From Escherichia phage EK010, in sequence record NC_070981.1: a DNA stretch of 64,000 nt; one strand, written 5' to 3'. The notes beneath the pieces were generated by a model. The model was not told the DNA's origin. It ran no database searches and saw nothing but the letters and a program-made list of their open reading frames with translations. A program made the translations under genes and the position numbers. Below, in pieces: positions 2,269 through 36,867 of the stretch (positions are counted from its first letter, which is position 1; every line of letters begins with the position of its first letter).

Positions 2269-3067
2269 GCGCGCTTTCCTTATTGGCTCTGACCCTGAAA
2301 TGTTTGTTCGTACTGCTTCCGGTATTATCACCTCTGTGGCTGGTAAGCTGGGCTGTTCTAAAGATAATAAAATTGATCTGGCTCCTGATGTTCGTCTTCA
2401 AGAAGACAACGTTCTGGCTGAGTTTGATATTAACCCACAGAAAGGGTTTGAAGCGTTTGATGATAATATTCAGCGTGGTATTGATCTGACTAACAAAGTT
2501 CTCAATGAACGTGGCATGGAGGCAGCACTTGGGATTAGCTCTCATGTGTTCACTTCAGAAGAACTTGAATCATTCCACCCGTCAGCTTTTGTATTTGGCT
2601 GTACTCCTGATTTCAATGCCTTCACTGGACAAAAGAACCCTTCACCAGTCGCAACCGATAAGGGTTTGCGTACTGCTGGGGGTCATGTGCACCTTGGTGT
2701 CTCCGGGACTTTAGAGATTACTCGACAAACTCAAATGATGTTGGGTGTGTTGTGTGATTACTTCCTGTCCTTGCCAGCTGTGATCATGGATAAAGACACT
2801 CGTCGTAAAGAGTTGTACGGAAAGGCTTCTGCCATTCGCTACAAAGATTACGGTATTGAATATCGTTCTCTTTCTAACTTCTGGATTGGTGATAAGTCCA
2901 CTCGCAAGTTTGTTTATGAGCAAGTGGATAAGGTTGTTCAGGGTTGTGATATGGAAGTGTTGATGTCACTTCACTCTCGCCTTCCAATTGAAAAGCTTCA
3001 TAACATCATCAACAGCAACGATGTTAAAGAAGCGGATAAATTCTCCTCTAAACTCCAGATTGTATAA
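2261..3067 (+). CDS. candidate glutamine-synthetase-like amidoligase (COOH-NH2 ligase), divergent
   Basis: Start moved to internal ATG with GGAG RBS 7 nt upstream; N-terminal 'GSDPEMF' resembles the GS 'GPEPEFF' carboxylate motif; later 'GGHVHLG' H-x-H motif. Confidence 0.35.
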   Translation: MTKRAFLIGSDPEMFVRTASGIITSVAGKLGCSKDNKIDLAPDVRLQEDNVLAEFDINPQKGFEAFDDNIQRGIDLTNKVLNERGMEAALGISSHVFTSEELESFHPSAFVFGCTPDFNAFTGQKNPSPVATDKGLRTAGGHVHLGVSGTLEITRQTQMMLGVLCDYFLSLPAVIMDKDTRRKELYGKASAIRYKDYGIEYRSLSNFWIGDKSTRKFVYEQVDKVVQGCDMEVLMSLHSRLPIEKLHNIINSNDVKEADKFSSKLQIV

Positions 3068-3076
3068 GGTGATATT

Positions 3077-3703
3077 ATGAGCTTGTTAAGAGATTTTCAA
3101 CACTATTATTGTGGAACATGGATTGCTCAGCGATCACCTGATGGTAAAAACCTCCCTCTATATGTGCTTGATGTTCGTCAGCAAGGTAACTTTGATATCG
3201 ACGACTACTCACACGACGCTGAAATGTCTTTAGTGTTTGAGGCGGAACGCTGGACTAAAAACTCTGAAGGTCAGTTTGAACGTCAGATTGTTAGTAATAT
3301 CCCAGTGTTTGATCACAGCCTCATTCTAGAGTCTCCAGATGTAGGATACCTTCAGCATGGTAATAACATGGTGAGCTGGACCCATATCAACCCTGTTCGT
3401 CAGCGAGCTAAAGGCTTGATGGGGAATAAACTTCGTGGTGCTGCACCTTCTCTCGGACGTTCGATTCCGGGTGATTTGGTGTACAACTTGTTTAATCCAG
3501 AGTTTGAAGGGTTGGTTACTCGTTTCATCTATATCAACCCTGTCGATGGAAAAGTGTATTACAAAGGGGCTTACGTTGGAAACGTGCTTCTTGAAGCTGG
3601 CTATGGCGACAACGGTCGCCAATCTTTAAACCTTCTGGAGAAGTTCAAGCATATTTCTTCAGACCTGTCATCATATAATGTAGAGTTGGTGGAATCATTA
3701 TGA
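3077..3703 (+). CDS. hypothetical protein (208 aa)
   Basis: ATG ORF with AAGGTGA RBS; sits between the two amidoligase-like genes. Confidence 0.6.
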   Translation: MSLLRDFQHYYCGTWIAQRSPDGKNLPLYVLDVRQQGNFDIDDYSHDAEMSLVFEAERWTKNSEGQFERQIVSNIPVFDHSLILESPDVGYLQHGNNMVSWTHINPVRQRAKGLMGNKLRGAAPSLGRSIPGDLVYNLFNPEFEGLVTRFIYINPVDGKVYYKGAYVGNVLLEAGYGDNGRQSLNLLEKFKHISSDLSSYNVELVESL

Positions 3704-4800
3704 CAACCGTAGCACAAGTTTTTGGATACCGTAACCCTCGCTTATCTGAACCACATCCAAGTATTGCTTTTCAGTGTGGTGTAGGTATTGAGTTAGAAGT
3801 CGAAGGTACAATTGACATTGACGCTGATATGTGGGTTTGTACTGAAGATGGCTCTCTTCGTGATGGTTGTGAATTAGTGTGTGCACGACCTTACAACGGT
3901 GAAGAATTACTTCGTGCTATTAACAATCTGAGTGAAGCAGTACAGGACTCTGGAGCCGAGGGAACTTGGCGCTGCTCCACTCACGTTCATATGGATATGC
4001 GGGACGCTGATAGTAATATCCTTAAGAAAGTTATTCTTGGGTGGACGTTCTATGAAAAGATGATGTTCAAATGTTCTGGATATCATCGTTACCGTAGTAA
4101 CTTCTGCCCAGCTTTTGCTGTTGTTCAAGCTCAAGTTATGAATGCTTCATCAGCGTTCAACCGAGATGGGGAAGATTTCTTCCGTACTCTTGTTAATAGC
4201 TGGGACAAGTATACCTCCCTTAACCTGTTGCCTCTATCTCAGTTTGGTTCTGTTGAGTTTCGTATTTCAGAGCCGAAGTGGAAAAAGAGTCAGCTGCTAA
4301 ATCTGGTCAATCGCTTCTTGGTTCTCAAGAAACTGGCTGTTGAATATGCAGATTTAGATAATGAAGCTTATGTTGAGAAGTTGAATGAGCTGCGCTTCGC
4401 TCCTATGATTCAACATCTACCTCTAGACTATACTCCAAGAGATAGCGATCTCACTGAAGGGTATCGTCTTGCCCGTGATATTCTGTTCTGTCGTGAGCAA
4501 TCTGTAACTTTGGTTGGTCGTGTTCGTGTGCAACAGACTGGCCCTGATGGTGAAGTCCTTATCAACTTACGTGATATGAATGACTTCTATGGTTTCTTGG
4601 GATATGTGCGCGGTAATGCCAACACTGTCTATGAAGAGATCATGACCTACTACACTCCTCAGATTGAAAGCACTCGAATCGCAACGGTTCGTGAAATTCG
4701 TCACATGTTTGCATTGATGCGTGAATCAGGTAGCAGTGATAATAACATCACTGATTACATTCCAGACCATCTGGAAATGCAATTAGAACGACTGCTGTAA
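3700..4800 (+). CDS. amidoligase (glutamine-synthetase-like COOH-NH2 ligase family)
   Basis: Motifs 'GIELEVEG' (E-x-E), 'EDGSL', 'GCELV', 'STHVHMD' (H-x-H); start overlaps previous stop (ATGA). Confidence 0.5.
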   Translation: MTTVAQVFGYRNPRLSEPHPSIAFQCGVGIELEVEGTIDIDADMWVCTEDGSLRDGCELVCARPYNGEELLRAINNLSEAVQDSGAEGTWRCSTHVHMDMRDADSNILKKVILGWTFYEKMMFKCSGYHRYRSNFCPAFAVVQAQVMNASSAFNRDGEDFFRTLVNSWDKYTSLNLLPLSQFGSVEFRISEPKWKKSQLLNLVNRFLVLKKLAVEYADLDNEAYVEKLNELRFAPMIQHLPLDYTPRDSDLTEGYRLARDILFCREQSVTLVGRVRVQQTGPDGEVLINLRDMNDFYGFLGYVRGNANTVYEEIMTYYTPQIESTRIATVREIRHMFALMRESGSSDNNITDYIPDHLEMQLERLL

Positions 4801-4877
4801 CACAATGGGCGCTCTGATAAAGGGCGCATTTAAAGGTTAATTAGATGAAAGGGTTTACCCTTCAGGTGGATTAGAAA

Positions 4878-6911
4878 ATTTGTGGTATCGTATTAGCTGG
4901 CGGCAACATGACCTCAACAGATTTGGATATTTTCAACCAACTTCTGTATGCTGGTGTTTTCCGGGGACAGCACTCAACTGGTGTGTTTGGTCAGCGTAAA
5001 GGTGAAAAGCAAGTCTTCTCTTATAAAGAAGCTCTTCCTTCTTATGCTTTTATGCTCCAGACAGAATATACAAATATTACCAAAGGGCTTACGAACTACG
5101 TGGTTCCTCCTTCGTGGATTGTTGGTCACAGCCGACATGCCACTCGTGGGGCTGTCAATGCTCGAAATGCTCACCCATTTACTCACGGGGATATTACTCT
5201 GGTTCATAATGGAACCCTGTTAGATCAAGATCTCCTTCCTGACAGTAAGCGTTTCGAAGTTGATAGTGAAAACATCTGCCACTCAATTAATACCATTGGA
5301 GCAGCAGAGACTATCCAAAAACTGGATGGTGCATTCACTTTAATCTGGCATGACGCCAAAGATAACACGCTTCACATTATCCGTAATGATGAGCGTCCTT
5401 TCCACCTAGCCCGTTGTGGTTTAGATTGGTTTGGGGCTTCTGAAGAAGCTATGCTTATGTGGATTTTAGAGCGTTCTAAATCCCACAAGAACCGTATCAA
5501 TGACCACTTCGAGTGTAAAGTGGGAACTGAGTATATCTTTGATGTGTCTAACAGTCGTATGACTCTGGTTCAAGAGGTGGAGCACAAGCTTCCGGTTTTT
5601 ACGGTAACGAGTCGCTGGGGCGGCTATTACTCGAACTCCTCTCTATATCAGAACCAACAGACAAACAAATCAAGCAGCAGCACAAGCGACATTTACGGAA
5701 ACAAAGACGACAAGCCCGGCGTGACAAGCGGAGACATTCGTCGTCGTAAAGCGATTGAAGACCAGAACAAACTGGCTGCCGATCGTGGTCTTCCTTATCG
5801 TCGTGATGGTCGTGTGGATATTATTCCTCACGAGTTCCATGCTTATAACAACACAGATCGTGGTAAGATGGTTGGTTACATCTACGACGATAAAGCCCAA
5901 GAGTATGTCGAAGGGGATGTTCACAACGTAGCCAAAGATGAATATCTTAAGGCTCTTGAAAACCCAAAGGTAGTATATCGCGGGACGATTGCTTGTATCT
6001 CCGAAGTGGACAGTATGATTCGCCTCGTACTAACTTCAGGGCTGTTTGTTGATGCTACAGATAAGGAGCCTCAAAGCACTACTGCTGATTTTGATGATGA
6101 TATCCCTTTTGATGCAGAGGACTCCTTCATCACTAAAAATGGTGTAGAAGTCACTCGTAAGTTCTGGGAATCTCACTCTCATGGTGATTGTGGTGGTTGT
6201 GATAAGCACATTGACTGGAAAGATGCTCGTAAGGCTGTGTTTGCTTATCAAGCATACTGGCATCCAGAATGCTTCGAAGCGTTATCTAAAACCTCTGAAG
6301 ATGAAGAAGATGTGCCTTTGGGTGTATGTGCTATCTGTGGTGAAGTCAAGACTGATTTCGAGTTTGACAACGAAATGAGTAAACTTCGTGGTGAAGACGT
6401 TTGTTATATCTGCTCCAAAGAAATCAAAGATAAAGTAAAGAATGTTACTCTATCTGAAGGTTATATTTGGACTAAAGCAGTAGACACAACCAACCCACGT
6501 CGTCCTGAAGTAGCTGTTCGTGTTGATGAACGTATGCTTAGCCGTATGATCGTAATGGTTAGCTCAGCAAAACGTTCAGGGGATATCACACTTGCAGATG
6601 TTCCTAATTCGTATTTGGAAAAACGTGGTGGTGATACTTATGCCATCTCTGTTTATGGTCCAAAGAATGCCCCAAAGGAGGTACCCGCTGAGAAAGCGGA
6701 GACATTTCCAGAAAAGTCAACCTCTCTCCGAAAAACAGTTGTCAGTTACGATGGACAACGAACAGCTGAGTTTACAAAAGCCCTCTGGACTTCAATTGGG
6801 TTTTGTGCAGTCTGTTATAAACAAATTCCGTGGCGTGATGCAGAAACTTGCTCACTAAACAAAGAAAATAGAGTGATCTGTAATTCAGATTACTGTAAAG
6901 GTAAACACTAA
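4878..6911 (+). CDS. class-II (Ntn) glutamine amidotransferase-domain protein with C-terminal Cys-rich zinc-ribbon-like motifs; probable AUU start
   Basis: Track ORF starts at ATG 4908, but in frame just upstream is stop-AAA-ATT-TGT-GGT-ATC-GTA giving '(I)CGIVLAGGNM...', the GAT-II N-terminal Cys-nucleophile signature; AGGTGGA RBS at 4864-4870, 7 nt before ATT 4878; downstream 'FRGQHSTG' and 'HNGTL' fit PurF/GlmS-type domain; C-terminus has three C-x2-C pairs. Confidence 0.55.
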   Translation: MCGIVLAGGNMTSTDLDIFNQLLYAGVFRGQHSTGVFGQRKGEKQVFSYKEALPSYAFMLQTEYTNITKGLTNYVVPPSWIVGHSRHATRGAVNARNAHPFTHGDITLVHNGTLLDQDLLPDSKRFEVDSENICHSINTIGAAETIQKLDGAFTLIWHDAKDNTLHIIRNDERPFHLARCGLDWFGASEEAMLMWILERSKSHKNRINDHFECKVGTEYIFDVSNSRMTLVQEVEHKLPVFTVTSRWGGYYSNSSLYQNQQTNKSSSSTSDIYGNKDDKPGVTSGDIRRRKAIEDQNKLAADRGLPYRRDGRVDIIPHEFHAYNNTDRGKMVGYIYDDKAQEYVEGDVHNVAKDEYLKALENPKVVYRGTIACISEVDSMIRLVLTSGLFVDATDKEPQSTTADFDDDIPFDAEDSFITKNGVEVTRKFWESHSHGDCGGCDKHIDWKDARKAVFAYQAYWHPECFEALSKTSEDEEDVPLGVCAICGEVKTDFEFDNEMSKLRGEDVCYICSKEIKDKVKNVTLSEGYIWTKAVDTTNPRRPEVAVRVDERMLSRMIVMVSSAKRSGDITLADVPNSYLEKRGGDTYAISVYGPKNAPKEVPAEKAETFPEKSTSLRKTVVSYDGQRTAEFTKALWTSIGFCAVCYKQIPWRDAETCSLNKENRVICNSDYCKGKH

Positions 6912-6922
6912 GAGGTATAGTT

Positions 6923-7156
6923 ATGGAAGTTCGTAAACTGATGTTGGATAACGTGGTAACTACCCGTCGTATTCCGATGACAAGCACAGGATGTGATAAC
7001 CTCCGAGCAATTCAGAAGTGGATGCAAGAAGGTATTGGGAAGCTGGTTGACTCTCCAGTAGAAATCCCTTTTCCAACCGTCATTAATAACGTGTTGGCTG
7101 ACTATGTTAAAATGAAGGGGATTAAAGTTGAGCCTCATGTCAAGCAAGGGAGCTAA
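6923..7156 (+). CDS. hypothetical protein (77 aa)
   Basis: ATG ORF with GAGG RBS. Confidence 0.5.
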   Translation: MEVRKLMLDNVVTTRRIPMTSTGCDNLRAIQKWMQEGIGKLVDSPVEIPFPTVINNVLADYVKMKGIKVEPHVKQGS

Positions 7157-7358
7157 GCCTCACCTGACAATGCTGGAGTATCAACAACTCCGACTTCAAC
7201 AACTGGTAACGGAGCAGCGAAAGCTGTATCCGTTTGCTTTTAACCTAATTGATTCACCAAGCGATGACCAAGAAGACGAGATGTTCGCCAAGTATTGGGA
7301 AATCGAAGTTAAAATTCAATCCTGTCGTAACGAAATTCTTAAACTAAAAGGTATCTAA
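7137..7358 (+). CDS. hypothetical protein (start uncertain: 7137 or 7170)
   Basis: Track ORF begins at TTG 7128; first in-frame ATGs at 7137 and 7170; overlaps previous gene. Confidence 0.4.
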   Translation: MSSKGAKPHLTMLEYQQLRLQQLVTEQRKLYPFAFNLIDSPSDDQEDEMFAKYWEIEVKIQSCRNEILKLKGI

Positions 7359-7360
7359 AA

Positions 7361-8596
7361 ATGACTACTCGTATCCGTGTTCTTCCGTATGGCCCTTCTG
7401 ATTCTGTTAACGCTCTGGTAACTGCCATTAACGATACTATCCGTGATGAACGTATCAACGCTAACATAATGGGTCTTCTTTCAGAGAACAGTCGCTGGCG
7501 TTCTCGTGAGGGTGATGTGGTTGTGAACTACGGGAACCGTCGCTATCCTGAATCCTTCTTTGGTTCTGCAACTGTCCTTAACCGTACCGCAGCCTTACAT
7601 ATGGCAGCGAACAAACGTCGTGCTTTCAGCGTGATGGACCAAGCAGGTGTTAAAACTGTTGAGTATACAGATGTTCAAGAGATTGCTCAGGAGTGGTCAA
7701 ACTCTGGCAACATTGTGTATGAACGTCATGAACTGACTGGTCACTCTGGTTCGGGTATCGTTGTTGTTGAGCCTCGTGATTCAATTGGTCAAGCTGAACT
7801 GTACACCAAAGGTATTCAAGGTCCACGTCGTGAATGGCGTGTCCATGTGTTCAAAGGTGTTATCACCTATGTTCAGAAGAAGATTCGTCGTAACGGCTAT
7901 CGTGAAGACCCTAACTATCGTGAAGATGTTCGTAACCATCACACTGGTTGGGTTTACTCAAGTTCCTTCACAGACGCTCCAAATGATGCATCTCTGATCA
8001 ACGCAGTGAAAGCTGTTGAATCAATGGGTCTGGATTTCGGTGCAGTTGATATCATCACCAAAGGTCAAGAAGCGTGGGTACTGGAAGTTAATACAGCACC
8101 GGGCCTGACTGGTACAACTCTGGATACCTACCGTCATAACATTCTTGAGTTTGTTAAAGCTCAAAACCCTCTCTATACCCCTCAGTATAAAGTGGTTTAC
8201 CAGACTCCGATTGAAGATGGAGACGGTGAGTTGGTGGATGATATTGAAAGTGCTGATGATGAAAACTTTGCACTGGAAGGACAAGTAGCACAGCCGATTG
8301 ATTCAGTTGATGTGGTTCCTGAAGAAATGCAACTGGAAGGTCAGATGAATACTCAAACTATTCGTAATGCACCTACTGGCTACACTTTGTCTCGTGGCTA
8401 CTGGATTGCAAATATCCGTCATGTCCACAACAACCTGCAACCGAATGCAATGTCTGCCAATGTCATCCTGTTCTGTGATGGTCGTAACTTCTACCGCAGT
8501 GGTTGGAACGTTCCGGTCAATCCAGTCCAGATTCATAACCCTCGCAAGTTAGAGTCTGTCAATGTTGAAGGTAGCGAAGTAGCAGTAACTCTGTAA
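7361..8596 (+). CDS. ATP-grasp ligase (RimK/glutamate-ligase-like)
   Basis: 'GHSGSGIVVV' glycine-rich loop and 'WVLEVNTAPGL' Mg/ATP-binding E-x-N motif typical of ATP-grasp enzymes. Confidence 0.5.
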   Translation: MTTRIRVLPYGPSDSVNALVTAINDTIRDERINANIMGLLSENSRWRSREGDVVVNYGNRRYPESFFGSATVLNRTAALHMAANKRRAFSVMDQAGVKTVEYTDVQEIAQEWSNSGNIVYERHELTGHSGSGIVVVEPRDSIGQAELYTKGIQGPRREWRVHVFKGVITYVQKKIRRNGYREDPNYREDVRNHHTGWVYSSSFTDAPNDASLINAVKAVESMGLDFGAVDIITKGQEAWVLEVNTAPGLTGTTLDTYRHNILEFVKAQNPLYTPQYKVVYQTPIEDGDGELVDDIESADDENFALEGQVAQPIDSVDVVPEEMQLEGQMNTQTIRNAPTGYTLSRGYWIANIRHVHNNLQPNAMSANVILFCDGRNFYRSGWNVPVNPVQIHNPRKLESVNVEGSEVAVTL

Positions 8597-8627
8597 TTAA
8601 ATTAAATTAAACAAAAAGGAATTTGTA

Positions 8628-8870
8628 ATGTTGTCTATCGAAGATTTGATCAGCCGTGGAATGACCGAAGAAAAAGAGCCTCTGATTGTAGGCTCTCGTA
8701 AAGCTATCAACCAACTCTGTGAAGAGTTCGGAATCACAAATAAGAGAATGATTGGTAATCAGTTCTCTGCAATCATCACCTTCCTCAAACGAGGTGATAA
8801 ATATTCAATGGAATGTGCTGAGCGTATCATCGCAATTGCACAAGCAGATAAGGGAGTAACAAATCTATGA
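8628..8870 (+). CDS. hypothetical protein (80 aa)
   Basis: ATG ORF; AAGGA RBS. Confidence 0.5.
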   Translation: MLSIEDLISRGMTEEKEPLIVGSRKAINQLCEEFGITNKRMIGNQFSAIITFLKRGDKYSMECAERIIAIAQADKGVTNL

Positions 8871-9052
8871 ATAAATACACAATCATGTTTCGTACAATGT
8901 CAGCAGAAGGAAATATTCAATCTCTGGACATTCAAGCAGATCGCTTTGAATCACTTGGAACAAGTGTTAACTTCTTCCGAGGTACAGAGCTAGTGGGTAC
9001 ATTCCAATCTGATGTGTTGACTGGTGTGATCAAACACTTCGAAGTAGAATAA
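8867..9052 (+). CDS. hypothetical protein (61 aa)
   Basis: ATG overlaps upstream stop (ATGA). Confidence 0.45.
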   Translation: MNKYTIMFRTMSAEGNIQSLDIQADRFESLGTSVNFFRGTELVGTFQSDVLTGVIKHFEVE

Positions 9053-9111
9053 TTTGCTTTAGCCTCTTCGAAAGAGGGGGCTAGTTCGAATTTAGCTTAC
9101 AAAGGAGTTTT

Positions 9112-9648
9112 ATGGAATGGAGAGAACTTCCCGGATATGAGGGACAGTATTCAATCTCTGATAAAGGGGATATCCGTAGTAATTACCGATGGTATCTTAA
9201 CCCTAAGACACTAACACGCCATAAGAAAGATCGTGAATTGATTATGACACCCAATGTTGGTTCAGCGGGTTATGCTCGAATCAAATTAAGTGATCAGATT
9301 TTTCATCCGTATCACAGATTGGTAGCTATTGTTTGGGTAAGCAATCCAGAAAACAAACCTTTCATCAACCATAAAGATGGAAACAAACTGAACAACAACC
9401 CTTCTAATCTAGAATGGGTTACTTGTCAGGAAAACAATATACATGCATATCAGACAGGTTTAAACTCTGGTATGCTAAGAGCAGAAACCCTTTCACATGT
9501 GTGGAATTTTATATCTCCCGAAGGGGTTCAAACCGAAATCACTAACCTTTGTAAATATTGTAGAGAGAATGATTTATCTAAGTCCTCTATGATAGCAGTA
9601 CACAAAGGAACTCAATATCAACATAAGGGTTGGAAAAGAAATGAGTAA
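9112..9648 (+). CDS. HNH homing endonuclease
   Basis: 'NHKDGNKLNNNPSNLEWVTCQENNIH' HNH motif; AAGGAG RBS; paralog of 20238-20732. Confidence 0.7.
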   Translation: MEWRELPGYEGQYSISDKGDIRSNYRWYLNPKTLTRHKKDRELIMTPNVGSAGYARIKLSDQIFHPYHRLVAIVWVSNPENKPFINHKDGNKLNNNPSNLEWVTCQENNIHAYQTGLNSGMLRAETLSHVWNFISPEGVQTEITNLCKYCRENDLSKSSMIAVHKGTQYQHKGWKRNE

Positions 9649-10075
9649 TGAGAAAGTTTTAGTAGCAACTTACGGCAGCTTGAGAAAAGGTCAACACAAC
9701 CACGCTATCAATGCTCGTGCAGGTGGTGTGTCTATCGGTGAAGGGTGGACAGTAAACAACTGTAACCTGTATCAGTATTGCACAGCATACTTCCCAAGTG
9801 TATCTCTGGTGCATAACAGCAATGGTAAGCCTGTTCGTGTAGAGGTCTTTGAGACAACCCAAGCTGGTCTGGAAGGCCCATATGACGGTCTGGAAGGTCA
9901 CCGTGGCAATGATAACCCATACACCTTTTACAAACGTACATTGATCCCAGTATTATTGGACAGTGGTGAAACTGTGGAAGCGTGGATTTACCATATTGAC
10001 GAAGAACAAGATGTTCTTGTTGAATCTGGTGACTGGACAGCATATCTGGCAGGTGAGAAGGATGACAGTAACTGA
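9641..10075 (+). CDS. gamma-glutamylamine cyclotransferase-like protein (AIG2/GGCT fold)
   Basis: N-terminal 'VATYGSLRKGQHNH' matches the GGACT 'YGTLKRGQPNH' signature; candidate catalytic Glu in 'RVEVFE'. Confidence 0.6.
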   Translation: MSNEKVLVATYGSLRKGQHNHAINARAGGVSIGEGWTVNNCNLYQYCTAYFPSVSLVHNSNGKPVRVEVFETTQAGLEGPYDGLEGHRGNDNPYTFYKRTLIPVLLDSGETVEAWIYHIDEEQDVLVESGDWTAYLAGEKDDSN

Positions 10076-12638: not shown

Positions 12639-14099
12639 ATGATTAAGATTCCATTATCTGAATTGAACCTTCAAGAAGGAGAAGCCCTCAGTGTAGGGCT
12701 TGACCTGATTCGTAATTTGATCAGAGATAACGTAGTCCCTGATGGTATCTATCCTGTTATTGCAGGTGGTGCTATCCGTGATACGTTCTTCCAAAATCGA
12801 ACTCCGAATGATGTTGATATCTTCCTAGTTCAAGGAGGGCTTCGTTGGAACACTCGCCAGGAAAATAGCCCTGCTAACGTAGGTAATGCTGCACTGTTCC
12901 TTGACAACTTCTTATCTTGGACAGAAAGTAAGGGGCTTCAGGTTACATCTCGCCTAGTTCAGCCTGTTAACGGGACAACCTATGCTGAAGCGCTTTTCAC
13001 TTTCCAAGAGATTCTGGAAATTGAGATTGATCAAGTGAAGATTCAGATGATGATTAATCTCCCTCTGGATATGGATACTTTGAGTCGTCGCTTTCCTATG
13101 ATCTGTCAAGGGTTTATGACTCTTGGTGATTTGTATGTGTCAAACGAAGGTTTGTTTGCAATGTCATACACTCGTGACATTCCTGTGGTATCTAGTCGTG
13201 AAATGAAGTATGTTCACAAGAAGTGGCCTGAAGCAACTGTTGCAGTTTATAGCAGTTCTACCGAATATATGCACCTTGCAATGGGAGCTTTCGGTGAGCC
13301 AGAAGTTCACCTGATTAGTGATTTAGTTGGACCTATGGCTGGTGTAAATTTATATCAGAATCAGCGTCGTCATTATACCCTGAAGATGATGGAAACTATA
13401 TTAAACATTCCTCAGGAAAGGGGTCGTAGCTATCTGGACGAGGAAGTTAACCTACAGACAGAATGGTCTAGTGGATTAACCACTATAGGTGCTGAAGCAA
13501 TTACGCAGCCTTGGACTCCGGGAACTAACAGACGAGATCTTCAAGCTTTTAATGAAGAAACTTCTCGAACTGTTCGAGGAGGTGTTGTAGGGTATAACGT
13601 ACAACCTCATGAAAGACCTCGTGACACTTTTACTGGCAGTTTTGGTAGTGCACACTCTTCTGGAATGGATACTCGTACATGGCATGTCCAAGGAGGAACT
13701 GCTCGTCCTATTCCTTCTCCGTCAATGGATGATTTGCAGCGTTCTCGTCGTTCATGGGAAACAGTAAGCTCTGTTGTTCAGGGTCTACGTGCTAGTGATG
13801 TAGAACGTGTAGAAGTTGGCGATGTGCTGGAAGATGGATTGCTGGCGATAGCGGCTCGTGAAGCTGCTCGTACTGGCTTTGCATCTTTAGCTAATGATGC
13901 TAACGAAGCTCCTCGCCCTCGCCGTCGTAGCGGTTTAGCTCACTCTAACACTGAACTAGGTTCAGAACTCCGATCTGCTGCTCGTGAGCTATCTGGTGAG
14001 CTTCACAACAACCTAGCAGGTGTTACACTATCTCGTGAAACAGCTCGTAATATGATTAATAATTTGGCATCATCTGTACAAGGAAACAGAAACTCATGA
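12639..14099 (+). CDS. Pol-beta-superfamily nucleotidyltransferase (CCA-adding/poly(A) polymerase-like head) with Ser/Arg-rich low-complexity C-terminus
   Basis: 'IAGGAIRDTFF...NDVDIFL' matches GGAVRD + DxD catalytic motif; C-terminal half GC-rich and compositionally distinct. Confidence 0.5.
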   Translation: MIKIPLSELNLQEGEALSVGLDLIRNLIRDNVVPDGIYPVIAGGAIRDTFFQNRTPNDVDIFLVQGGLRWNTRQENSPANVGNAALFLDNFLSWTESKGLQVTSRLVQPVNGTTYAEALFTFQEILEIEIDQVKIQMMINLPLDMDTLSRRFPMICQGFMTLGDLYVSNEGLFAMSYTRDIPVVSSREMKYVHKKWPEATVAVYSSSTEYMHLAMGAFGEPEVHLISDLVGPMAGVNLYQNQRRHYTLKMMETILNIPQERGRSYLDEEVNLQTEWSSGLTTIGAEAITQPWTPGTNRRDLQAFNEETSRTVRGGVVGYNVQPHERPRDTFTGSFGSAHSSGMDTRTWHVQGGTARPIPSPSMDDLQRSRRSWETVSSVVQGLRASDVERVEVGDVLEDGLLAIAAREAARTGFASLANDANEAPRPRRRSGLAHSNTELGSELRSAARELSGELHNNLAGVTLSRETARNMINNLASSVQGNRNS

Positions 14100-14629
14100 G
14101 TCTTTTAGGTTCTCAAGAATTACACAGCGTTATTGATAGTGGCTTTTTAGATGCGGAGCATAAATATGTTAACGCTGCTAGTGTGGATATCCGTATTGGT
14201 GATACTATCCTTGTTGAAGAACAGGCTGATGGTATTGTTGACATTGATGCTAAAGAAAACCTCAAGTGGAAAGAAGTGAAAATCCCTGAAGATGGCATTG
14301 TCATTACTCCGGGACAGTTCTTCTTAGCTCACTCTATGGAAGAATTTAACCTTCCAGATAACATCTCAAGCCTGTTTGTACTCCGCTCCTCGATGGCTCG
14401 TTGTGGTTTGAACCACCTACATGCTGGTTGGGCTGATGCAGGGTTTAACAGCAGTAAGCTAACCTTTGAGTTCCATAACGTTACCCACAATCACAGCTTA
14501 CGAGTTCGTGCTGGGATGCGTGTTGGTCAAATGGTTATGTTTGAACACTCTCACGCTGGTGATGATTCCTATGCAGTGAAGGGTCGTTACAATGGCAGCA
14601 ATGGTGTAGTTGCTTCTAAAGGTGTATAA
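14096..14629 (+). CDS. dcd: dCTP deaminase
   Basis: 'VDIRIG', 'LRSSMARCGL', 'GWADAGFNSSKLTFEFHN' align with bacterial Dcd motifs. Confidence 0.7.
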   Translation: MSLLGSQELHSVIDSGFLDAEHKYVNAASVDIRIGDTILVEEQADGIVDIDAKENLKWKEVKIPEDGIVITPGQFFLAHSMEEFNLPDNISSLFVLRSSMARCGLNHLHAGWADAGFNSSKLTFEFHNVTHNHSLRVRAGMRVGQMVMFEHSHAGDDSYAVKGRYNGSNGVVASKGV

Positions 14630-14632
14630 TTG

Positions 14633-14845
14633 ATGGAGTTTGGAACAATGAAAAGACGTTGGGTAGTTCGTGTTCACTGGAGCAGTGGTGCAGAGTCAAT
14701 GGGTATTAGAAACACCCGTCAAGAAGCTCGCGCTCATAAGAAGTTCTTGTTAAGTTGTGAAAGCACAATTAATAAGATCACTATCCACAAAGCTCAAGAC
14801 TTTAAATCAGGTCGTTTCTATATCAGCGGAAAGGTACATTACTAA
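14633..14845 (+). CDS. small protein, paralog family member 1 of 4
   Basis: Shares W-x-V-x-V-x-W ... RQEAR ... K-I ... (V/I)HY pattern with 14845, 16709, 16929 ORFs. Confidence 0.5.
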   Translation: MEFGTMKRRWVVRVHWSSGAESMGIRNTRQEARAHKKFLLSCESTINKITIHKAQDFKSGRFYISGKVHY

Positions 14846-15051
14846 TGGCTAGATTATGGGCAGTTCGCGTTAAATGGGCTAACAAAGACCTTGGTGGTGA
14901 TTGTATTAAATTATTCGACACTCGACAAGAAGCTCGTCTTGCTAAGAAAGCTACAAAAGCTTTAGGTCTCGCTGAAAAAGTAGAGATTCATCGTTGGTTT
15001 CAAAATGACAATAACAGTGCAGGATCCTTGACTAGCAAGGTTCATTACTAG
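14845..15051 (+). CDS. small protein, paralog family member 2 of 4
   Basis: Same pattern; start overlaps upstream stop (TAATG). Confidence 0.5.
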   Translation: MARLWAVRVKWANKDLGGDCIKLFDTRQEARLAKKATKALGLAEKVEIHRWFQNDNNSAGSLTSKVHY

Positions 15052-15075
15052 TTGGTAGTAGATATGATAACTCTC

Positions 15076-15084
15076 AAATGTATA
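15076..15084 (+). promoter_or_regulatory. promoter-like motif AAATGTATA (one mismatch to TAATGTATA)
   Basis: Intergenic, 37 nt upstream of ATG 15122. Confidence 0.35.
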
Positions 15085-15121
15085 TACAGTATAAGAATAT
15101 TGTATGAAACAGGAGAGAGTT

Positions 15122-15451
15122 ATGTTAGATTTGAGTAAAGTGGCCCCGCCATCTGAAGAGATTAGCAAAGCTAAAGTTATGCAGCAGTTCTATCATCGGG
15201 ATATGCTTGGTCGTTATATCAAGAATCGTGATGTTGTTGCATGGTCTATTGGAAATCAAGGTTATCTTCTCAAAGTGTTGCAAGTTACTGGCTCAACAGC
15301 CAAGCGAGTCAAAGTCTATGACCCTGAAATGGGGCGTTCTAAATCAGTAGACCCTCAGAATTGCATTGTTATCACACAACAGGTCATGGATAACATTGCT
15401 CGTAATGTAGCTAATTCAACTAACTTAGAAGGGGATGCACCTAATGCATAA
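15122..15451 (+). CDS. hypothetical protein (109 aa)
   Basis: Internal ATG with AGGAGAG RBS; preceded by AAATGTATA motif. Confidence 0.55.
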   Translation: MLDLSKVAPPSEEISKAKVMQQFYHRDMLGRYIKNRDVVAWSIGNQGYLLKVLQVTGSTAKRVKVYDPEMGRSKSVDPQNCIVITQQVMDNIARNVANSTNLEGDAPNA

Positions 15452-16010
15452 TAATGTCTTCGACTTACCTGAACTAACACGAGTGGGTTCTAGCAACCCA
15501 TTCTCTACTACTGACTCTTCTATTTCTCGTCTTGAGGGAATGAATAAACTGATTAGTGGTAACAGCTTAGAACACATCTTATGTGATGTGCAAGCTAACC
15601 TTGAACTTCTACACATCAAAGCAAAGAACTACCACTGGAACGTCTCTGGAGCTGGTTTCCAAGGTGTTCATGGTATGTTCGATGAACTAGAAGATTATGC
15701 TCGTGAGGCAGGCGACCGAATAGCAGAGCGTATGCGCTTCCATTGTGTTAAGGTGGATGCCACTGCCAGTAACTATTTAGGTCACGCTTGGTTCCGAGAA
15801 GGTAACGCTGATCTCGACATGGACGGTATGCTTTCCGACATGTGCATGACTCTTATGTGTATCATTGAGAAGATGGATGAGTTTGATTCAGACTTGTGCA
15901 CCTATCCAGTGGACCAGAGTATGCTTCAAGAAATTAATGAAGGTCTTGGCAAGTTCTGTTACTTCGTCAAGAGCAACATGTCCCACTCCAGTGGTGATGT
16001 GTCTTACTAA
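15435..16010 (+). CDS. Dps-like ferritin (DNA-binding ferroxidase fold)
   Basis: 'NYHWNVSGAGFQGVHGMFDELEDYAREAGDRIAERM' matches the Dps signature; start may be ATG 15444. Confidence 0.6.
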   Translation: MHLMHNNVFDLPELTRVGSSNPFSTTDSSISRLEGMNKLISGNSLEHILCDVQANLELLHIKAKNYHWNVSGAGFQGVHGMFDELEDYAREAGDRIAERMRFHCVKVDATASNYLGHAWFREGNADLDMDGMLSDMCMTLMCIIEKMDEFDSDLCTYPVDQSMLQEINEGLGKFCYFVKSNMSHSSGDVSY

Positions 16011-16019
16011 TCAAACCTC

Positions 16020-16060
16020 CGCCCTGTCTCGTTTGTTCAAGAGGTGGGGCGAACTTTTTT
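16020..16060 (+). terminator. rho-independent terminator candidate after Dps-like gene
   Basis: Imperfect ~11-bp stem (three G-U pairs) followed by TTTTTT. Confidence 0.4.
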
Positions 16061-16074
16061 ATAAGGATGTGAAT

Positions 16075-16254
16075 ATGTTTTCAGCAATCGTATGGTCTGT
16101 GTGGGCAATTCTTGTTGGCGGTATCGTTTATCTGGCTCAGAAGCAGATGCTTAAAGAGAATCCGAATGATGCTAAAGCCATTAAACATGGCAGCATTGCT
16201 CTGGTAGTCTTCTCTGTTGTTATTCCTTTCCTTCTTCACCTATGGACTGCATAA
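16075..16254 (+). CDS. small membrane protein (two predicted TM helices)
   Basis: Internal ATG with AAGGA RBS; hydrophobic stretches; follows a hairpin + T-run. Confidence 0.5.
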   Translation: MFSAIVWSVWAILVGGIVYLAQKQMLKENPNDAKAIKHGSIALVVFSVVIPFLLHLWTA

Positions 16255-16430
16255 TGAAATTAAACCTCCCTGAAGAGCTACAAGCACATGCTATTATTGT
16301 TAGTGGCTGTGTAATGGGTCTTGGTCAGACGAAGAAGATTGCCCATGATTTAGCAAAAGGGCAGTATAAATCTTTTATTGTTGTTCCTGCTACCCAACGT
16401 CATATCAATCTGTTTATTAACAAGGAATAG
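16254..16430 (+). CDS. hypothetical protein (58 aa)
   Basis: ATG overlapping upstream stop (TAATG). Confidence 0.4.
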   Translation: MKLNLPEELQAHAIIVSGCVMGLGQTKKIAHDLAKGQYKSFIVVPATQRHINLFINKE

Positions 16431-16431
16431 A

Positions 16432-16707
16432 ATGAGTAAAGTGATTAAGTTTTATAGTAACTCCTGTGCTCCGTGTGCAGCTATGGCTCCTGTGTTTAAG
16501 AAGGTTGTGGCTGACTATAACGTTGAAGTTGAAGAGGTAAACATCTCTGAAGGTGATGGTCGAGAGCGGGCCATTGAGTATGGTGTTCGCAGTATCCCAG
16601 CCTTCATAGTCCCTGATAATAACAGTGGTGCTCACTATAGTTTGTCAGGTATGCAAACTGAATCTAATCTCCGTGCATTTTTAGACACGGCTCTGAAAGG
16701 TAAGTAA
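16432..16707 (+). CDS. thioredoxin/glutaredoxin-like protein
   Basis: 'SCAPC' CxxC active-site-like motif and 'VRSIPAF'; AAGGA RBS. Confidence 0.5.
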   Translation: MSKVIKFYSNSCAPCAAMAPVFKKVVADYNVEVEEVNISEGDGRERAIEYGVRSIPAFIVPDNNSGAHYSLSGMQTESNLRAFLDTALKGK

Positions 16708-16708
16708 T

Positions 16709-16921
16709 ATGTCCGAATGTAAATGGGCTTTACAAGTAAATTGGGGTGGTAATAGAAGTGACATTGCCGCCACTATCTCGTTACAACGAACCCGTGAAGC
16801 TGCTCGTACACTTCGTCGTATGTTTATCAGTGGTGGTCAGAAACCATGTGATGTTAAAATCTACAAAGTTAAACATACCAACGGTGTTATGCAAATTGAC
16901 ACCAACGTAAATTATCGCTGA
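16709..16921 (+). CDS. small protein, paralog family member 3 of 4
   Basis: W..V.W ... TREAAR ... C-terminal NYR. Confidence 0.5.
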   Translation: MSECKWALQVNWGGNRSDIAATISLQRTREAARTLRRMFISGGQKPCDVKIYKVKHTNGVMQIDTNVNYR

Positions 16922-16928
16922 GGCAGAT

Positions 16929-17144
16929 ATGGAAAAGAAACCTTGGGTTACTTTTTGGGTAGTTAAGTGGTTTAATTTTGATAGTACAATCCCTAGCTTC
17001 TCAACATACTCCACACGGAAAGAGGCTCGTCGGTTTAAGCGAGCTTTAAAAATTGCTAATACCGGTGCTTCTAAGATTACAATCCAGAAAGGGATTGAAA
17101 CAGAAAGCGGAAGCAACATGGTTTATAAAAAGATTCACTATTAA
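16929..17144 (+). CDS. small protein, paralog family member 4 of 4
   Basis: W..V.W ... RKEAR ... C-terminal IHY. Confidence 0.5.
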   Translation: MEKKPWVTFWVVKWFNFDSTIPSFSTYSTRKEARRFKRALKIANTGASKITIQKGIETESGSNMVYKKIHY

Positions 17145-17151
17145 GGAAGAA

Positions 17152-17619
17152 ATGATACAAGACGACTTGGAATACAACCCTAAGACTGGAGACTTCTTCT
17201 GGAAGAACACAAAAGGTCGAAGGGTTAAAGGAAATCAAGCTGGGTATGTATCTTCTCTAGGTTATCGTTACATTGAGCATGAAGGGAAAAGCTACAGAGC
17301 TTGTCGCCTTGCTTGGTTCTTTGTTCATGGAAAGTTTCCTGAGTTTGAAATTGACCACATCGACCAGAACAAACTTAATGACTCAATTGATAACCTAAGA
17401 GATGTGAATCCATCTACTAACTGCCATAACAGAAGGCAGTACGATGTTGATAACAAGATAGGAAATCTTCCTAGAGGTGTGTATCTTCGTAAGACAGCTT
17501 CTGGTGATAAATATCGAGCCATTATCGGCGTCAAAGGTAAGAATATATACTTAGGGACTTTTGCTTCTTGTGAAGAGGCAGAAGAAGTTTACAACAAGGA
17601 GAAGTTGAAGTATGTCTGA
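17152..17619 (+). CDS. HNH homing endonuclease with AP2-like DNA-binding domain
   Basis: 'IDHIDQNKLNDSIDNLRDVNPSTNCHN' HNH motif plus AP2-like 'GV...GDKYRAIIGVKGKNIYLGTF'; AAGGAAG RBS; directly upstream of ThyX. Confidence 0.65.
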   Translation: MIQDDLEYNPKTGDFFWKNTKGRRVKGNQAGYVSSLGYRYIEHEGKSYRACRLAWFFVHGKFPEFEIDHIDQNKLNDSIDNLRDVNPSTNCHNRRQYDVDNKIGNLPRGVYLRKTASGDKYRAIIGVKGKNIYLGTFASCEEAEEVYNKEKLKYV

Positions 17620-18262
17620 TTTTTTAAAAGCAACACTGGTAGAGCACATGGGTTCCGACAAATCTGTGGTCAATGCAGCAAGGGTTTCCTTTGGTGTGAC
17701 ACGAGATGGTGATCTGAACGAACGTGACGAGCGGTTGATTAAATTCTTAGCTCGGGAACGTCATGTGACTCCTTTTCGACACCCTCAAATCACCTTTCGG
17801 TGTAAGGCTCCCATTGCAATTGCTAGACAACTCAATAAACACCAAGTTGGATTCTCATGGAACGAAATGTCCCGGCGGTATAAAGATGGAGCAGTTGAAC
17901 TCTTCATCCCTAAAGAGATTTTTGAAAGACCTTCGGACCTCCATGCAGGTGCGGGGAATCTCCTTACCACAGGAGCACAAAACTCTGCACTAGTTCTGAT
18001 TAATCGGGCATACGAAACAGCTCTTGAGTCGTATGATGAATTGATTAAGTTTATCGCTCCAGAGCAAGCTCGATTTGTTCTACCTCAAGGTATGATCACG
18101 GAGTGGGTGTGGACAGGTTCTTTATATGGCTGGTCAGAGTTATGTCGTCAGCGACTGTCCGACCATGCTCAGTATGAAGTACGAGTGTTCGCATCAACGG
18201 TCGATGAAGAGCTTCGTAAACTTTTCCCAATCTCATGGGATGCACTACGTGAAGCCCACTAA
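17612..18262 (+). CDS. thyX: flavin-dependent thymidylate synthase (ThyX family)
   Basis: 'LVEHMGSD...AARVSF', 'KAPIAIARQ', 'NEMSRRY', 'SDHAQYEVR' match ThyX conserved blocks. Confidence 0.65.
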   Translation: MSDFLKATLVEHMGSDKSVVNAARVSFGVTRDGDLNERDERLIKFLARERHVTPFRHPQITFRCKAPIAIARQLNKHQVGFSWNEMSRRYKDGAVELFIPKEIFERPSDLHAGAGNLLTTGAQNSALVLINRAYETALESYDELIKFIAPEQARFVLPQGMITEWVWTGSLYGWSELCRQRLSDHAQYEVRVFASTVDEELRKLFPISWDALREAH

Positions 18263-18437
18263 AGTATGTAGCTTCTGTCAAAAGCAGAAGCTTCTTATCA
18301 ATTTCAAGCTGAACGAGGAAACAGGTTTGGGTCATGCTTTTTGTCATGATTGCAGGCACTACCTTGAACAGAAGCAACACATAAACTGGTTGCATTACTA
18401 CCATCCAACAACATTCAAATTTAAGGTTGTTAAATGA
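18240..18437 (+). CDS. small Cys-rich protein (C-x2-C ... C-x2-C)
   Basis: Internal ATG of track ORF; 'CSFC...CHDC'; overlaps ThyX 3' end. Confidence 0.35.
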   Translation: MHYVKPTKVCSFCQKQKLLINFKLNEETGLGHAFCHDCRHYLEQKQHINWLHYYHPTTFKFKVVK

Positions 18438-19876: not shown

Positions 19877-19885
19877 TAATGTATA
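19877..19885 (+). promoter_or_regulatory. promoter-like motif TAATGTATA
   Basis: Intergenic, 35 nt upstream of ATG 19921. Confidence 0.45.
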
Positions 19886-19920
19886 CTCCTTAGTGTACAC
19901 TGATATATTAAGGAGTTATG

Positions 19921-20241
19921 ATGACCGATAAGGCGAAACGTGATTATGCACAAGAACGAAGAACTGCAATCGCAAGGGGTGAAACCGGCGTTGGTAGCAA
20001 GAGCGGAGATGCTCAGCGCCACCGTGCACGTCGCATCGTTGAAAAGCGCGATGGAAAAGCTGCTGTCCGAGGTAAAGATGTTGGACATAAACGATCAATC
20101 AAGTCGGGAGGTTCTAATGCGTCAAGTAACTTACGTGTTGAATCAGTCTCTCGAAATCGCTCGAACGGCGGCAAAAGTGGAGATCGTGCTGGAAAATCAG
20201 CAGGAGGAGTCAAATCGAGAAAAGGCGCTCTAAGTCAATGA
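19921..20241 (+). CDS. basic Arg/Lys/Gly/Ser-rich protein (106 aa); region also open in a second + frame
   Basis: AAGGAG RBS 5 nt before ATG 19921; TAATGTATA motif 35 nt upstream; alternative ORF 19940-20233 in another frame. Confidence 0.45.
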   Translation: MTDKAKRDYAQERRTAIARGETGVGSKSGDAQRHRARRIVEKRDGKAAVRGKDVGHKRSIKSGGSNASSNLRVESVSRNRSNGGKSGDRAGKSAGGVKSRKGALSQ

Positions 20242-26652: not shown

Positions 26653-26661
26653 TATACATTA
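26653..26661 (-). promoter_or_regulatory. promoter-like motif TAATGTATA in reverse orientation
   Basis: Same 9-mer on the opposite strand in the same intergenic region, pointing leftwards into non-coding DNA. Confidence 0.25.
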
Positions 26662-26723: not shown

Positions 26724-26732
26724 TAATGTATA
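26724..26732 (+). promoter_or_regulatory. promoter-like motif TAATGTATA
   Basis: Intergenic, 59 nt upstream of SSB-like gene; TATAAT-like hexamer at 26697-26702 nearby. Confidence 0.4.
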
Positions 26733-36858: not shown

Positions 36859-36867
36859 TATACATTA
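36859..36867 (-). promoter_or_regulatory. promoter-like motif TAATGTATA
   Basis: Intergenic, 36 nt upstream of ATG 36822 of the 1481-aa gene. Confidence 0.45.

Follow-up and report, generated by a model that had tools for sequence, protein, structure and literature searches.

Four short open reading frames lie in two tandem pairs in the stretch of DNA analysed here (64,000 nucleotides, hereafter the window), which is 100% identical to Escherichia phage E20-1, a phiEco32-like Kuravirus, and the question raised by this locus is whether they make up a true gene family and what such a family might do. A preliminary description had read them as paralogues of about 70 amino acids, members of a diversifying family typical of host-takeover or anti-defence functions, and had located them at 14633, 14845, 16709 and 16929. 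All four were found at these places on the plus strand and are referred to as paralogues A to D:

14648..14845, plus strand: paralogue A, 65 aa (70 aa if counted from the ATG at 14633), open reading frame and GenBank CDS UYE89972
14845..15051, plus strand: paralogue B, 68 aa, open reading frame and GenBank annotation
16709..16921, plus strand: paralogue C, 70 aa, open reading frame and GenBank annotation
16929..17144, plus strand: paralogue D, 71 aa, open reading frame and GenBank annotation

The location first given for A was correct but its start probably was not: translation is likely to begin at ATG 14648 rather than at 14633, since the GenBank start is placed there and the orthologues share an M-K-x-x-W start. 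A plausible Shine-Dalgarno sequence precedes each of the four frames, that of D being a GAGG located 5 nt upstream. The ATG of B overlaps the TAA stop of A (TAATG, 14843-14847) and the two genes are translationally coupled, while C starts 1 nt past the stop codon of the thioredoxin gene. Paralogue A is the A-type orthologue of phiEco32 phi32_70 / ECBP2_0068 and paralogue B the B-type orthologue of phi32_69 / ECBP2_0067.

The relationship among the four proteins was evaluated by Smith-Waterman alignment against 2000 shuffles, which returned z values of 13.8 for A-B, 14.8 for A-D and 12.5 for B-D, with 7.5 for A-C and 4.6 for B-C; C-D was the only pair insignificant by itself (z = 2.0). The phrog_4939 profile HMM matched A (E = 3.5e-26), B (E = 2.8e-19) and D (E = 8.1e-23) over profile positions 1-67, and C, the most divergent of the four copies, over positions 4-67 with a marginal E value of 1.8e-3. 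A second profile was built solely from relatives outside the E20-1/Bas87 clade, and this leave-clade-out profile scored 73.9 bits for A, 68.7 for B, 29.6 for C (shuffle maximum 9.7) and 55.5 for D, the best of 1000 shuffles of each protein reaching 9.5-11.8 bits. Compared with shuffled sequences, the similarity is well beyond chance, and the proposed family of about 70 residues was borne out by the shuffle tests, the PHROG matches and the leave-clade-out profile alike. The four frames are genuine genes and genuine paralogues. The DNA sequences of the copies are alike only where they encode the motifs, over 31 nt (77% identity) and 22 nt (82%), indicating that the duplications are old; A to D, all members of the lineage-restricted family PHROG 4939, are paralogues that separated long ago. 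A six-frame HMM scan of the window returned no copies beyond these four; a basic 66-aa ORF at 10138 and a 107-aa protein at 19918, both considered as extra copies, were unrelated.

The distribution of the family was then analysed and is very narrow, being confined to phiEco32-like (Kuravirus) coliphages, which are podophages, with one distant copy in Salmonella phage 7-11. PHROG 4939 has 19 representatives among 1.84 billion protein clusters, every one from phiEco32-like phages, and the family accounts for 11 clusters among 5.8 billion proteins. A tblastn search with paralogue B recovered 90 phage records, all Escherichia or Shigella. Orthologues of D at 90% identity or more were present in 17 phage records, while among 50,697 phage records C occurred in E20-1 alone, with phage EK010 as a further carrier. 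Relatives carry two to four copies after dcd, the dCTP deaminase gene, with 1-nt stop/start overlaps, and another zero to two between thioredoxin and ThyX. This syntenic arrangement, downstream of dcd or upstream of thyX, is common to seven annotated genomes and four metagenomic contigs, and the array stands directly 3' of the dCTP deaminase at every Gordonclarkvirinae-type locus examined. A-like and B-like types occurred in all seven complete Gordonclarkvirinae genomes examined, and both are listed as core genes of the phiEco32 subgroup (PMC8948821 Table S2). Bas87, a relative infecting O-antigen-restored K-12, shows the same 2+2 layout with A-, B- and D-type orthologues and a different fourth copy replacing C. 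Two short genes flanking the array, one of 68 aa after dcd in WFI101126, Paul and O18-011 and one of 63 aa in Bas87, are not family members.

In the window the family sits within the replication and nucleotide-metabolism gene block, where the following neighbouring features were identified:

14096..14629, plus strand: dCTP deaminase (annotation), with the family array directly downstream
15076..15084, plus strand: gp36-sigma middle-promoter element of P68 type, AAATGTATA, by pattern match
15122..16707, plus strand: genes between the two pairs (Pfam and annotation)
17152-17619, plus strand: HNH_3 homing endonuclease, downstream of D (Pfam and annotation)
17612-18262, plus strand: ThyX, downstream of D (Pfam and annotation)

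The Dps-like, membrane and thioredoxin-like genes reported between the pairs were recovered by annotation and Pfam (Ferritin E = 5e-8, Thioredoxin E = 1e-12); the region encodes a 109-aa conserved protein, the ferritin/Dps-like protein, a small membrane protein, a 58-aa ORF and the thioredoxin. The element AAATGTATA exactly matches the 'aAATGTATA P68' published for phiEco32, ECBP2 and SU10 (PMC8948821 Table S3), P68 being a middle promoter in experimental use (PMC12276001), and it splits the two pairs. A and B end the upstream transcription unit, which carries the primase-helicase, exonuclease, nucleotidyltransferase and dCTP deaminase, while C and D, between thioredoxin and ThyX, are part of the following unit, which is transcribed from P68, a middle promoter dependent on gp36/gp79. 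The SU10 lysate/virion proteome contained the neighbouring Dps-like, thioredoxin and 109-aa proteins and no family member among 34 detected proteins (PMC4281155).

As the family had been described as diversifying, its divergence was compared with that of the surrounding genes. The term holds only loosely. Copy number and position vary, and non-synonymous divergence exceeds that of the enzymes encoded nearby (dcd, the 109-aa gene, Dps-like and ThyX) by a factor of 3-8. However, dN/dS was 0.03-0.45 in all orthologous comparisons, with synonymous sites saturated between clades, and no gene-wide positive selection was seen in these comparisons. Clustering showed that A-like, B-like, D-like and a third type, 'Z', are kept across genera. 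Since dN/dS is below 1, the types are retained and the core motif is invariant, the sequences indicate weak purifying selection on old, subfunctionalised paralogues, with no arms-race signature. Purifying selection of this kind shows that the proteins are functional.

The protein sequences were examined for features pointing to a function. All 31 members analysed are strongly basic, with pI values of 9.8-10.75 and net charges from +6 to +11, compared with a median pI of 5.8 for the phage proteome; A has a pI of 10.75 and a net charge of +10, and B a pI of 9.92. Across 38 sequences W5, R24, R28 and Y65 are invariant and T23, A27 and K31 are 97% conserved, which gives a near-invariant T-R-x-x-A-R-x-x-K block with R-x-x-x-R invariant within the family, and a Tyr directly precedes the stop codon in 37 of the 38. 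The preliminary description had proposed a W-x-[VL]-x-V-x-W block, a (T)R(Q/K)EAR centre and a (V/I)HY end for all four paralogues; the exact pattern fails for C, which has TREAAR at its centre and ends in VNYR, and for D, whose N-terminal W-V-V-K-W is two residues shorter.

Structure prediction with AlphaFold2, run independently on A and on C, the copy that has diverged furthest, returned one fold common to both (pLDDT 78 and 77), a predicted four-stranded sheet packed by a single helix in the order beta1-beta2-alpha-beta3-beta4. The last 3-4 residues had a pLDDT below 50 despite their high conservation. The predicted helix of A spans residues 29-42 of the 70-aa form. R24, R28, K31, K32 and K35 are spaced i, i+4, i+7, i+8 and i+11, a periodicity that would place them on one helical face.

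On this basis, our preferred reading, to which we assign a probability of about one in three, is that each paralogue uses a basic ridge on its helix to bind a polyanion, with nucleic acid the likeliest ligand. The near-invariant Thr would cap the helix, one side of which would be lined by Arg at +1 and +5 (invariant), Lys at +8 (near-invariant) and Lys at +9 and +12 (frequent). Together with the conserved His-Lys of beta3, these residues may form a continuous basic ridge suiting phosphate backbones, over a core putatively built from the conserved beta1 Trp and hydrophobic residues. The invariant C-terminal Tyr, carried on the low-confidence AlphaFold tail, is likely to be a docking point for a partner or for a second subunit. 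Since the paralogues differ everywhere outside the conserved residues, they might supply a number of specificities, or assemble into hetero-oligomers, with phage or host DNA or RNA as their target in the replication phase. The basic charge and the conserved Arg/Lys are weak and non-specific as support, fitting acidic-protein, nucleotide or membrane binding equally well. Sequence searches of Pfam, NCBIfam and the PDB returned no relative, nor was one found by sequence or fold among the characterised nucleic-acid-binding families of Pfam and the PDB; Foldseek against the PDB gave nothing under E = 0.6, and the best PDB sequence matches of the four-sequence profile, ribosomal L23 (E = 0.12) and eL38 (E = 0.28), were insignificant. 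The lack of family members among the proteins detected for SU10 likewise speaks against this reading.

A second possibility, which we consider rather unlikely, is the one originally proposed, namely host-takeover or anti-defence functions. As a protein binder, each paralogue would inhibit or redirect a different host protein, for instance a component of a defence system, through a variable surface, and the conserved core would be a scaffold only. Small, phage-specific, multi-copy proteins varying in copy number and position, with an amino acid divergence 3-8 times that of the neighbouring enzymes, would suit such a role; the conserved low-confidence C-terminal tail resembles a docking motif, and the Gordonclarkvirinae have been reported to withstand the defence and restriction-modification systems tested unusually well (PMC11990801). 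However, dN/dS remains below 1 in every comparison and orthologous types are kept across genera, and the invariant positions carry charge (R, R, K), which goes beyond a mere scaffold. The strongly basic character is unlike that of DNA-mimic anti-restriction proteins. No match was obtained to any known family or, with HMM searches at E up to 1, to the catalogued defence-system components of PADLOC-DB. The genes also sit among replication and nucleotide genes, outside the block of early ORFans that work on phiEco32 ties to host takeover (PMC8948821), and the presence of A-like and B-like copies in 7/7 genomes, together with their core listing, would be more usual for a phage gene with a housekeeping role.

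The proteins might instead be accessory subunits or regulators of the phage dNTP-supply enzymes (dCTP deaminase, ThyX, thioredoxin and the ferritin-like protein), an improbable reading in which they would either bind the phosphate of a nucleotide through the Thr-Arg at the helix N-terminus or hold the enzymes together as a complex.

RimK-type ATP-grasp enzymes extend the C-terminus of proteins, and genes for a COOH-NH2 ligase, Amidoligase_2, GATase, RimK-like and GGACT proteins lie at 2240-10075 of the same genome. The C-terminal Tyr-COOH, almost universal (37/38 members) and located on a low-confidence tail, could then be an acceptor or carrier for tagging with peptides or amino acids by the phage's own RimK-like ATP-grasp, amidoligase, GATase or gamma-glutamyl-cyclotransferase enzymes. 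We regard this as very improbable: the link is a co-occurrence in one genome only, paralogue C ends in NYR, phage 7-11 possesses the ligase set, yet its family member ends in ...YKKVR, and amidoligase/GATase pairs occur in many phages without the family (PMC10580990). If true, it would reveal a virus-encoded system for tagging protein C-termini, with a dedicated family of small basic proteins as substrates, and the amidoligase cluster of phiEco32, long unexplained, would have a target.

The idea that the similarity is due to chance or that the frames are non-genes, which can draw on the C-D pair alone (z = 2.0), is already refuted by the profile scores (30-74 bits, where shuffles reach no more than 12), the independent PHROG matches, the orthologues kept with dN/dS < 1, and the Shine-Dalgarno sequences and coupled start/stop codons.

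The literature searched, which did not comprise the two original phiEco32 papers, contained no mention of phi32_69, phi32_70, phi32_71, phrog_4939 or ECBP2_0067, nor any experiments on a family member, and the svsR and Kuravirus-taxonomy literature held nothing bearing on the family. As neither the genes nor the PHROG are named there, the paralogy, array structure, basic charge and invariant motif may be unreported. CRISPRi-ART data for phage PTXU04 held nothing on the PHROG 4939 family; this phage, with 92 coding sequences and described as little related to known proteins, is unlikely to be a relative. The family is an ordinary uncharacterised small phage gene family, neither a new kind of system nor a new principle. 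Its characterisation would assign a function to two core-listed genes of the phiEco32 subgroup (A-like and B-like), in a group of phages that is common in nature, used in therapy studies and notably defence-resistant, and the T-R-x-x-A-R-x-x-K ridge, the terminal Tyr tail, the coupled A/B pairs and Bas87 offer experimental handles.

Finally, the family was compared with known proteins. A relation to gp79, the phiEco32 RNA-polymerase-binding factor with cryo-EM structures (PMC12276001), was discarded, the family profiles having matched no gp79 chain in PDB sequence searches. DUF2188 (PF09954), a family of small proteins from bacteria and phages, was considered on account of its similar size and similar 'W-x-V ... 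T-x-x-E-A ... I-H' register, and in hhalign the W-A-V-R and T-R/Q-x-E-A blocks do align. DUF2188 proteins may also follow the beta-beta-alpha-beta-beta order, and one DUF2188 phage protein came up as a weak Foldseek match (rank 50, E ~0.1, TM 0.52-0.58). This lead was rejected: PF09954 gave no match at E up to 10 for A-D or any of 25 family members, while DUF2188-type control sequences scored 92-111 bits, and hhalign returned a probability of 2.3% over 28 aligned columns, with a shallow DUF2188 alignment (Neff ~1.5). DUF2188 ends in a different tail, 'GRDGRI...DP.PP', and has neither the terminal Tyr nor the R-x-x-x-R-x-x-K ridge.

Small basic nucleic-acid-binding proteins, nucleoid-associated or ribosomal-like alpha/beta, are alike in size, charge and the presence of a Lys/Arg-rich helix on a small sheet, but with no significant sequence or fold match this likeness is a functional conjecture. 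The small anti-defence and host-takeover proteins (Ocr/ArdA, Acr) share neither sequence nor significant fold similarity with the family; DNA mimics of the Ocr/ArdA type are strongly acidic, in contrast to the pI of 9.8-10.75 found here, and the genome position of the family and its retention in the examined relatives differ from those of typical accessory anti-defence islands.

The four small ORFs, here named A to D and arranged in two tandem pairs (A/B and C/D), were all found where the preliminary description had placed them:

14633 or, as the most likely start, 14648 to 14845: ORF, paralogue A
14845-15051: ORF, paralogue B
16709-16921: ORF, paralogue C
16929-17144: ORF, paralogue D

In their multiple alignment the columns for W, V, W, T-R, A-R, I and Y do not vary. 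Against the shared blocks previously described (W-x-[VL]-x-V-x-W, (T)R(Q/K)EAR and a (V/I)HY end), the N-terminal block of D is two residues shorter and C carries a TREAAR centre and a VNYR end. Smith-Waterman comparisons against 2000 shuffles returned z values of 12.5-14.8 for the pairs among A, B and D, 7.5 for A-C and 4.6 for B-C; for C-D, z was only 2.0. The independent profile phrog_4939 matched A, B, C and D with E values of 3.5e-26, 2.8e-19, 1.8e-3 and 8.1e-23 respectively. A further profile, built solely from relatives outside the clade of phages E20-1 and Bas87, scored 73.9, 68.7, 29.6 and 55.5 bits for A, B, C and D against a shuffle maximum of 9.5-11.8 bits (1000 shuffles per protein); the likeness is therefore significant against shuffled sequences. 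We conclude that A to D are real genes of a coherent, lineage-specific family. A six-frame HMM scan detected no fifth copy in the window. At the DNA level the likeness among the copies is limited to the motif-coding stretches, and the duplications are thus ancient.

The region 14000-18300 is 100% identical, in reverse-complement orientation, to Escherichia phage E20-1 (OP293233.1; Gordonclarkvirinae, Kuravirus), a phiEco32-like podovirus, and 90-95% identical to ECBP2, Bas87 and other kuraviruses. All four genes are recorded in GenBank as "hypothetical protein". An antisense ORF of 112 aa (16781-17119, minus strand), which overlaps C and D and is chosen over both by a naive longest-ORF call, is almost certainly spurious. 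Two neighbouring genes of OP293233 look like misannotations, since the 'integrase' (15435-16010) matches Pfam Ferritin (E = 5e-8) and the 'holin' (16432-16707) matches Pfam Thioredoxin (E = 1e-12). The curated Bas87 record lists no single-stranded-DNA-binding protein in its early and middle gene region (locus L016, 27600-77516), even though a phage DNA polymerase, a primase-helicase and exonucleases are present.

Gene order was compared across seven annotated genomes and, in addition, four distinct metagenomic contigs; one contig starts within the array, leaving the dCTP deaminase gene (dcd) out of view there. Primase-helicase, exonuclease, nucleotidyltransferase and dCTP deaminase are followed by an array of 2-4 members coupled by 1-nt stop/start overlaps, and A and B are translationally coupled. 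Downstream of the array lie a 109-aa protein, the ferritin/Dps-like protein, small membrane protein(s) and thioredoxin, followed by a second site with 0-2 members, sometimes an HNH endonuclease, and then ThyX. Clustering resolved A-like (…SGRIYISGKVHY), B-like (…HRW…) and second-site types together with a third type, 'Z', which E20-1 lacks. The 2+2 layout belongs to the E20-1/Bas87/ECBP2 clade, and C shares only 33% identity with its nearest other member. The small membrane protein, a second small paralogue set in the operon, is present as one copy in E20-1 (window 16075-16254), whereas Bas87, WFI101126 and O18-011 each have a tandem pair of diverged copies (5267-5446 and 5456-5641 in a relative's locus L002). 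HNH homing endonucleases (HNH_3, one with NUMOD4) flank the family arrays, and the intergenic position that they occupy varies among relatives (behind dcd, ahead of thyX, beside primase-helicase):

Window 17152-17619: HNH endonuclease gene
Window 9112-9648: HNH endonuclease gene
Relative's locus L006, 3579-4088: HNH endonuclease gene
Relative's locus L007, 208-702: HNH endonuclease gene
Relative's locus L007, 3382-3891: HNH endonuclease gene
Relative's locus L007, 6586-7077: HNH endonuclease gene

The 52-nt gap after B holds AAATGTATA at 15076-15084, the exact published gp36-dependent middle promoter P68 of phiEco32, ECBP2 and SU10 (PMC8948821 Table S3), which has been put to experimental use as a middle promoter (PMC12276001). 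The next promoter-element match, TAATGTATA, lies at 19877; judged from these sites, A and B are thus the last genes of the upstream unit, and C and D are transcribed from P68. In SU10 the nucleotidyltransferase is an early product and the Dps-like protein, thioredoxin and 109-aa protein are middle products, no family member being among the 34 proteins detected (PMC4281155). The gp36-sigma promoter element WAATGTATA has five matches in the window against 1.4 expected by chance:

15076-15084, plus strand: WAATGTATA match
19877-19885, plus strand: WAATGTATA match
26724-26732, plus strand: WAATGTATA match
26653-26661, minus strand: WAATGTATA match
36859-36867, minus strand: WAATGTATA match

Their number and order agree with the published phiEco32 middle and late promoters, and the divergent pair at 26653 and 26724 shares one intergenic region. 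Just 3' of the TAATGTATA element lies the gene of a 107-aa protein (19918-20241) with pI 11.6, net charge +18, a Gly/Ser/Arg/Lys-rich low-complexity sequence and no Pfam match.

Among 5.8 billion proteins an alignment-based search recovered 11 family clusters; HMMER, run exhaustively on 1.84 billion cluster representatives, found 19 family proteins of 65-78 aa. By tblastn against 50,697 phage genomes B was found in 90 records, every one an Escherichia or Shigella phage. D-type copies occur in 39 records. Within that collection C is limited to E20-1, and it is present in phage EK010 as well. Fold matches in BFVD extend the distribution to Salmonella phage SE131 and Cronobacter phage GAP52. Salmonella phage 7-11 carries one distant, apparently unannotated copy (24 bits), in a region where the record annotates only the differently placed gp055:

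NC_015938 about 40948-41202 (locus L017, 10949-11203), strand -: family copy of ~73 aa, MSKVQWEVHF...KTRAEARAHKK...YKKVR

This copy adjoins neither dcd nor thyX. On this distribution, the family is restricted to the phiEco32-like supergroup.

Between E20-1 and the other clades, every gene is saturated at synonymous sites. In non-synonymous divergence the family (0.36-0.49) exceeds dcd (0.06), the 109-aa gene (0.07), the Dps-like gene (0.12) and thyX (0.16) by a factor of 3-8; it resembles the small membrane protein in this respect and stays below the nucleotidyltransferase. Within orthologous types dN/dS was 0.03-0.45, and the family is therefore fast-evolving yet under purifying selection. 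The term "diversifying" in the preliminary description thus holds only loosely: purifying selection and the retention of distinct types suit long-standing, subfunctionalised copies more than an arms race. Turnover nevertheless goes on, as the rarity of C and the differing numbers of copies at the second site show. The 486-aa nucleotidyltransferase upstream of dcd (12639-14099), which has no Pfam match, shares 34-36% identity with its counterparts in other kuraviruses, against 80-93% for the flanking exonuclease and dcd, and looks like a hypervariable or replaced allele.

All 31 members of one set have a pI of 9.8-10.75 and a net charge of +6 to +11, and the 7-11 copy, outside this set, is also basic (about +7 counted from sequence); the median pI of the window proteome is 5.8. 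A and B are among the four of 25 ORFs of up to 100 aa with pI above 9.7 in a crude gene call, from which C and D (pI 10.1-10.2) are missing because the spurious antisense ORF displaced both. Throughout 38 sequences W5, R24, R28 and the C-terminal Tyr do not vary; T23, A27 and K31 reach 97% conservation, and K32, I46, H47, K48, G55 and V63 at least 60%. AlphaFold2 predicted for A the topology beta(8-16)-beta(21-26)-alpha(29-42)-beta(46-57)-beta(61-64) (pLDDT 78, pTM 0.64), and the same for C, the most divergent copy (pLDDT 77). In these models the conserved Arg/Lys motif sits on the predicted helix, of which the T-R-x-x-A-R-x-x-K-K block would form the N-cap and first three turns. Taken with conservation and the predicted helix, helical periodicity would bring R24, R28, K31, K32 and K35 to one face, with A27, residue 30 and L34 on the buried face. 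In both models pLDDT drops under 50 over the last 3-4 residues, among them the invariant Tyr, as is typical of a tail that needs a partner.

The reading that we tentatively rank first, with a probability of about one in three, is that the basic helix ridge would bind polyanion or nucleic acid while the C-terminal Tyr tail would dock onto a partner or subunit. Second comes the proposal of the preliminary description, host-protein binders for takeover or anti-defence, which we consider possible but unlikely: it is compatible with the broad defence resistance reported for Gordonclarkvirinae (PMC11990801) and fits poorly with the basic charge, with the genome position and with the fact that all seven complete Gordonclarkvirinae genomes examined carry two copies or more. 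That the proteins are accessory factors of dNTP enzymes, as strict synteny suggests, is improbable, and the different location of the 7-11 copy weakens this reading. Last, the 7-11 copy and C, without a terminal Tyr, speak against acceptors for C-terminal tagging by the phage ATP-grasp/amidoligase set, a highly improbable reading; the remaining probability goes to something else. The phiEco32-type cluster at 2240-10075 holds a COOH-NH2 ligase, Amidoligase_2, a class-II glutamine amidotransferase, a RimK-like ATP-grasp (weak match) and a GGACT gamma-glutamyl cyclotransferase.

Searches for characterised relatives gave no Pfam match for the four proteins or 25 members, no NCBIfam or PADLOC match for the family, best E values of only 0.12-0.37 with PDB sequence profiles and 0.66 with Foldseek against PDB, and in BFVD nothing beyond the family itself except weak matches to uncharacterised phage proteins. 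DUF2188, considered as a lead, was rejected after real members were collected (controls match PF09954 at 92-111 bits), as an hhalign comparison of the two family alignments put the probability at 2.3%. Neither the A-D family genes nor PHROG 4939 are named in the literature searched. With its invariant TRxxARxxK ridge, terminal Tyr, extreme basicity and constant position behind dcd, the family is a reasonable, not urgent, experimental target. A to D belong to an already catalogued, uncharacterised PHROG, and two family types are among the core genes of the phiEco32 subgroup (PMC8948821 Table S2); the original observation is correct and its kind ordinary, an array of lineage-specific small-protein paralogues in a lytic phage.
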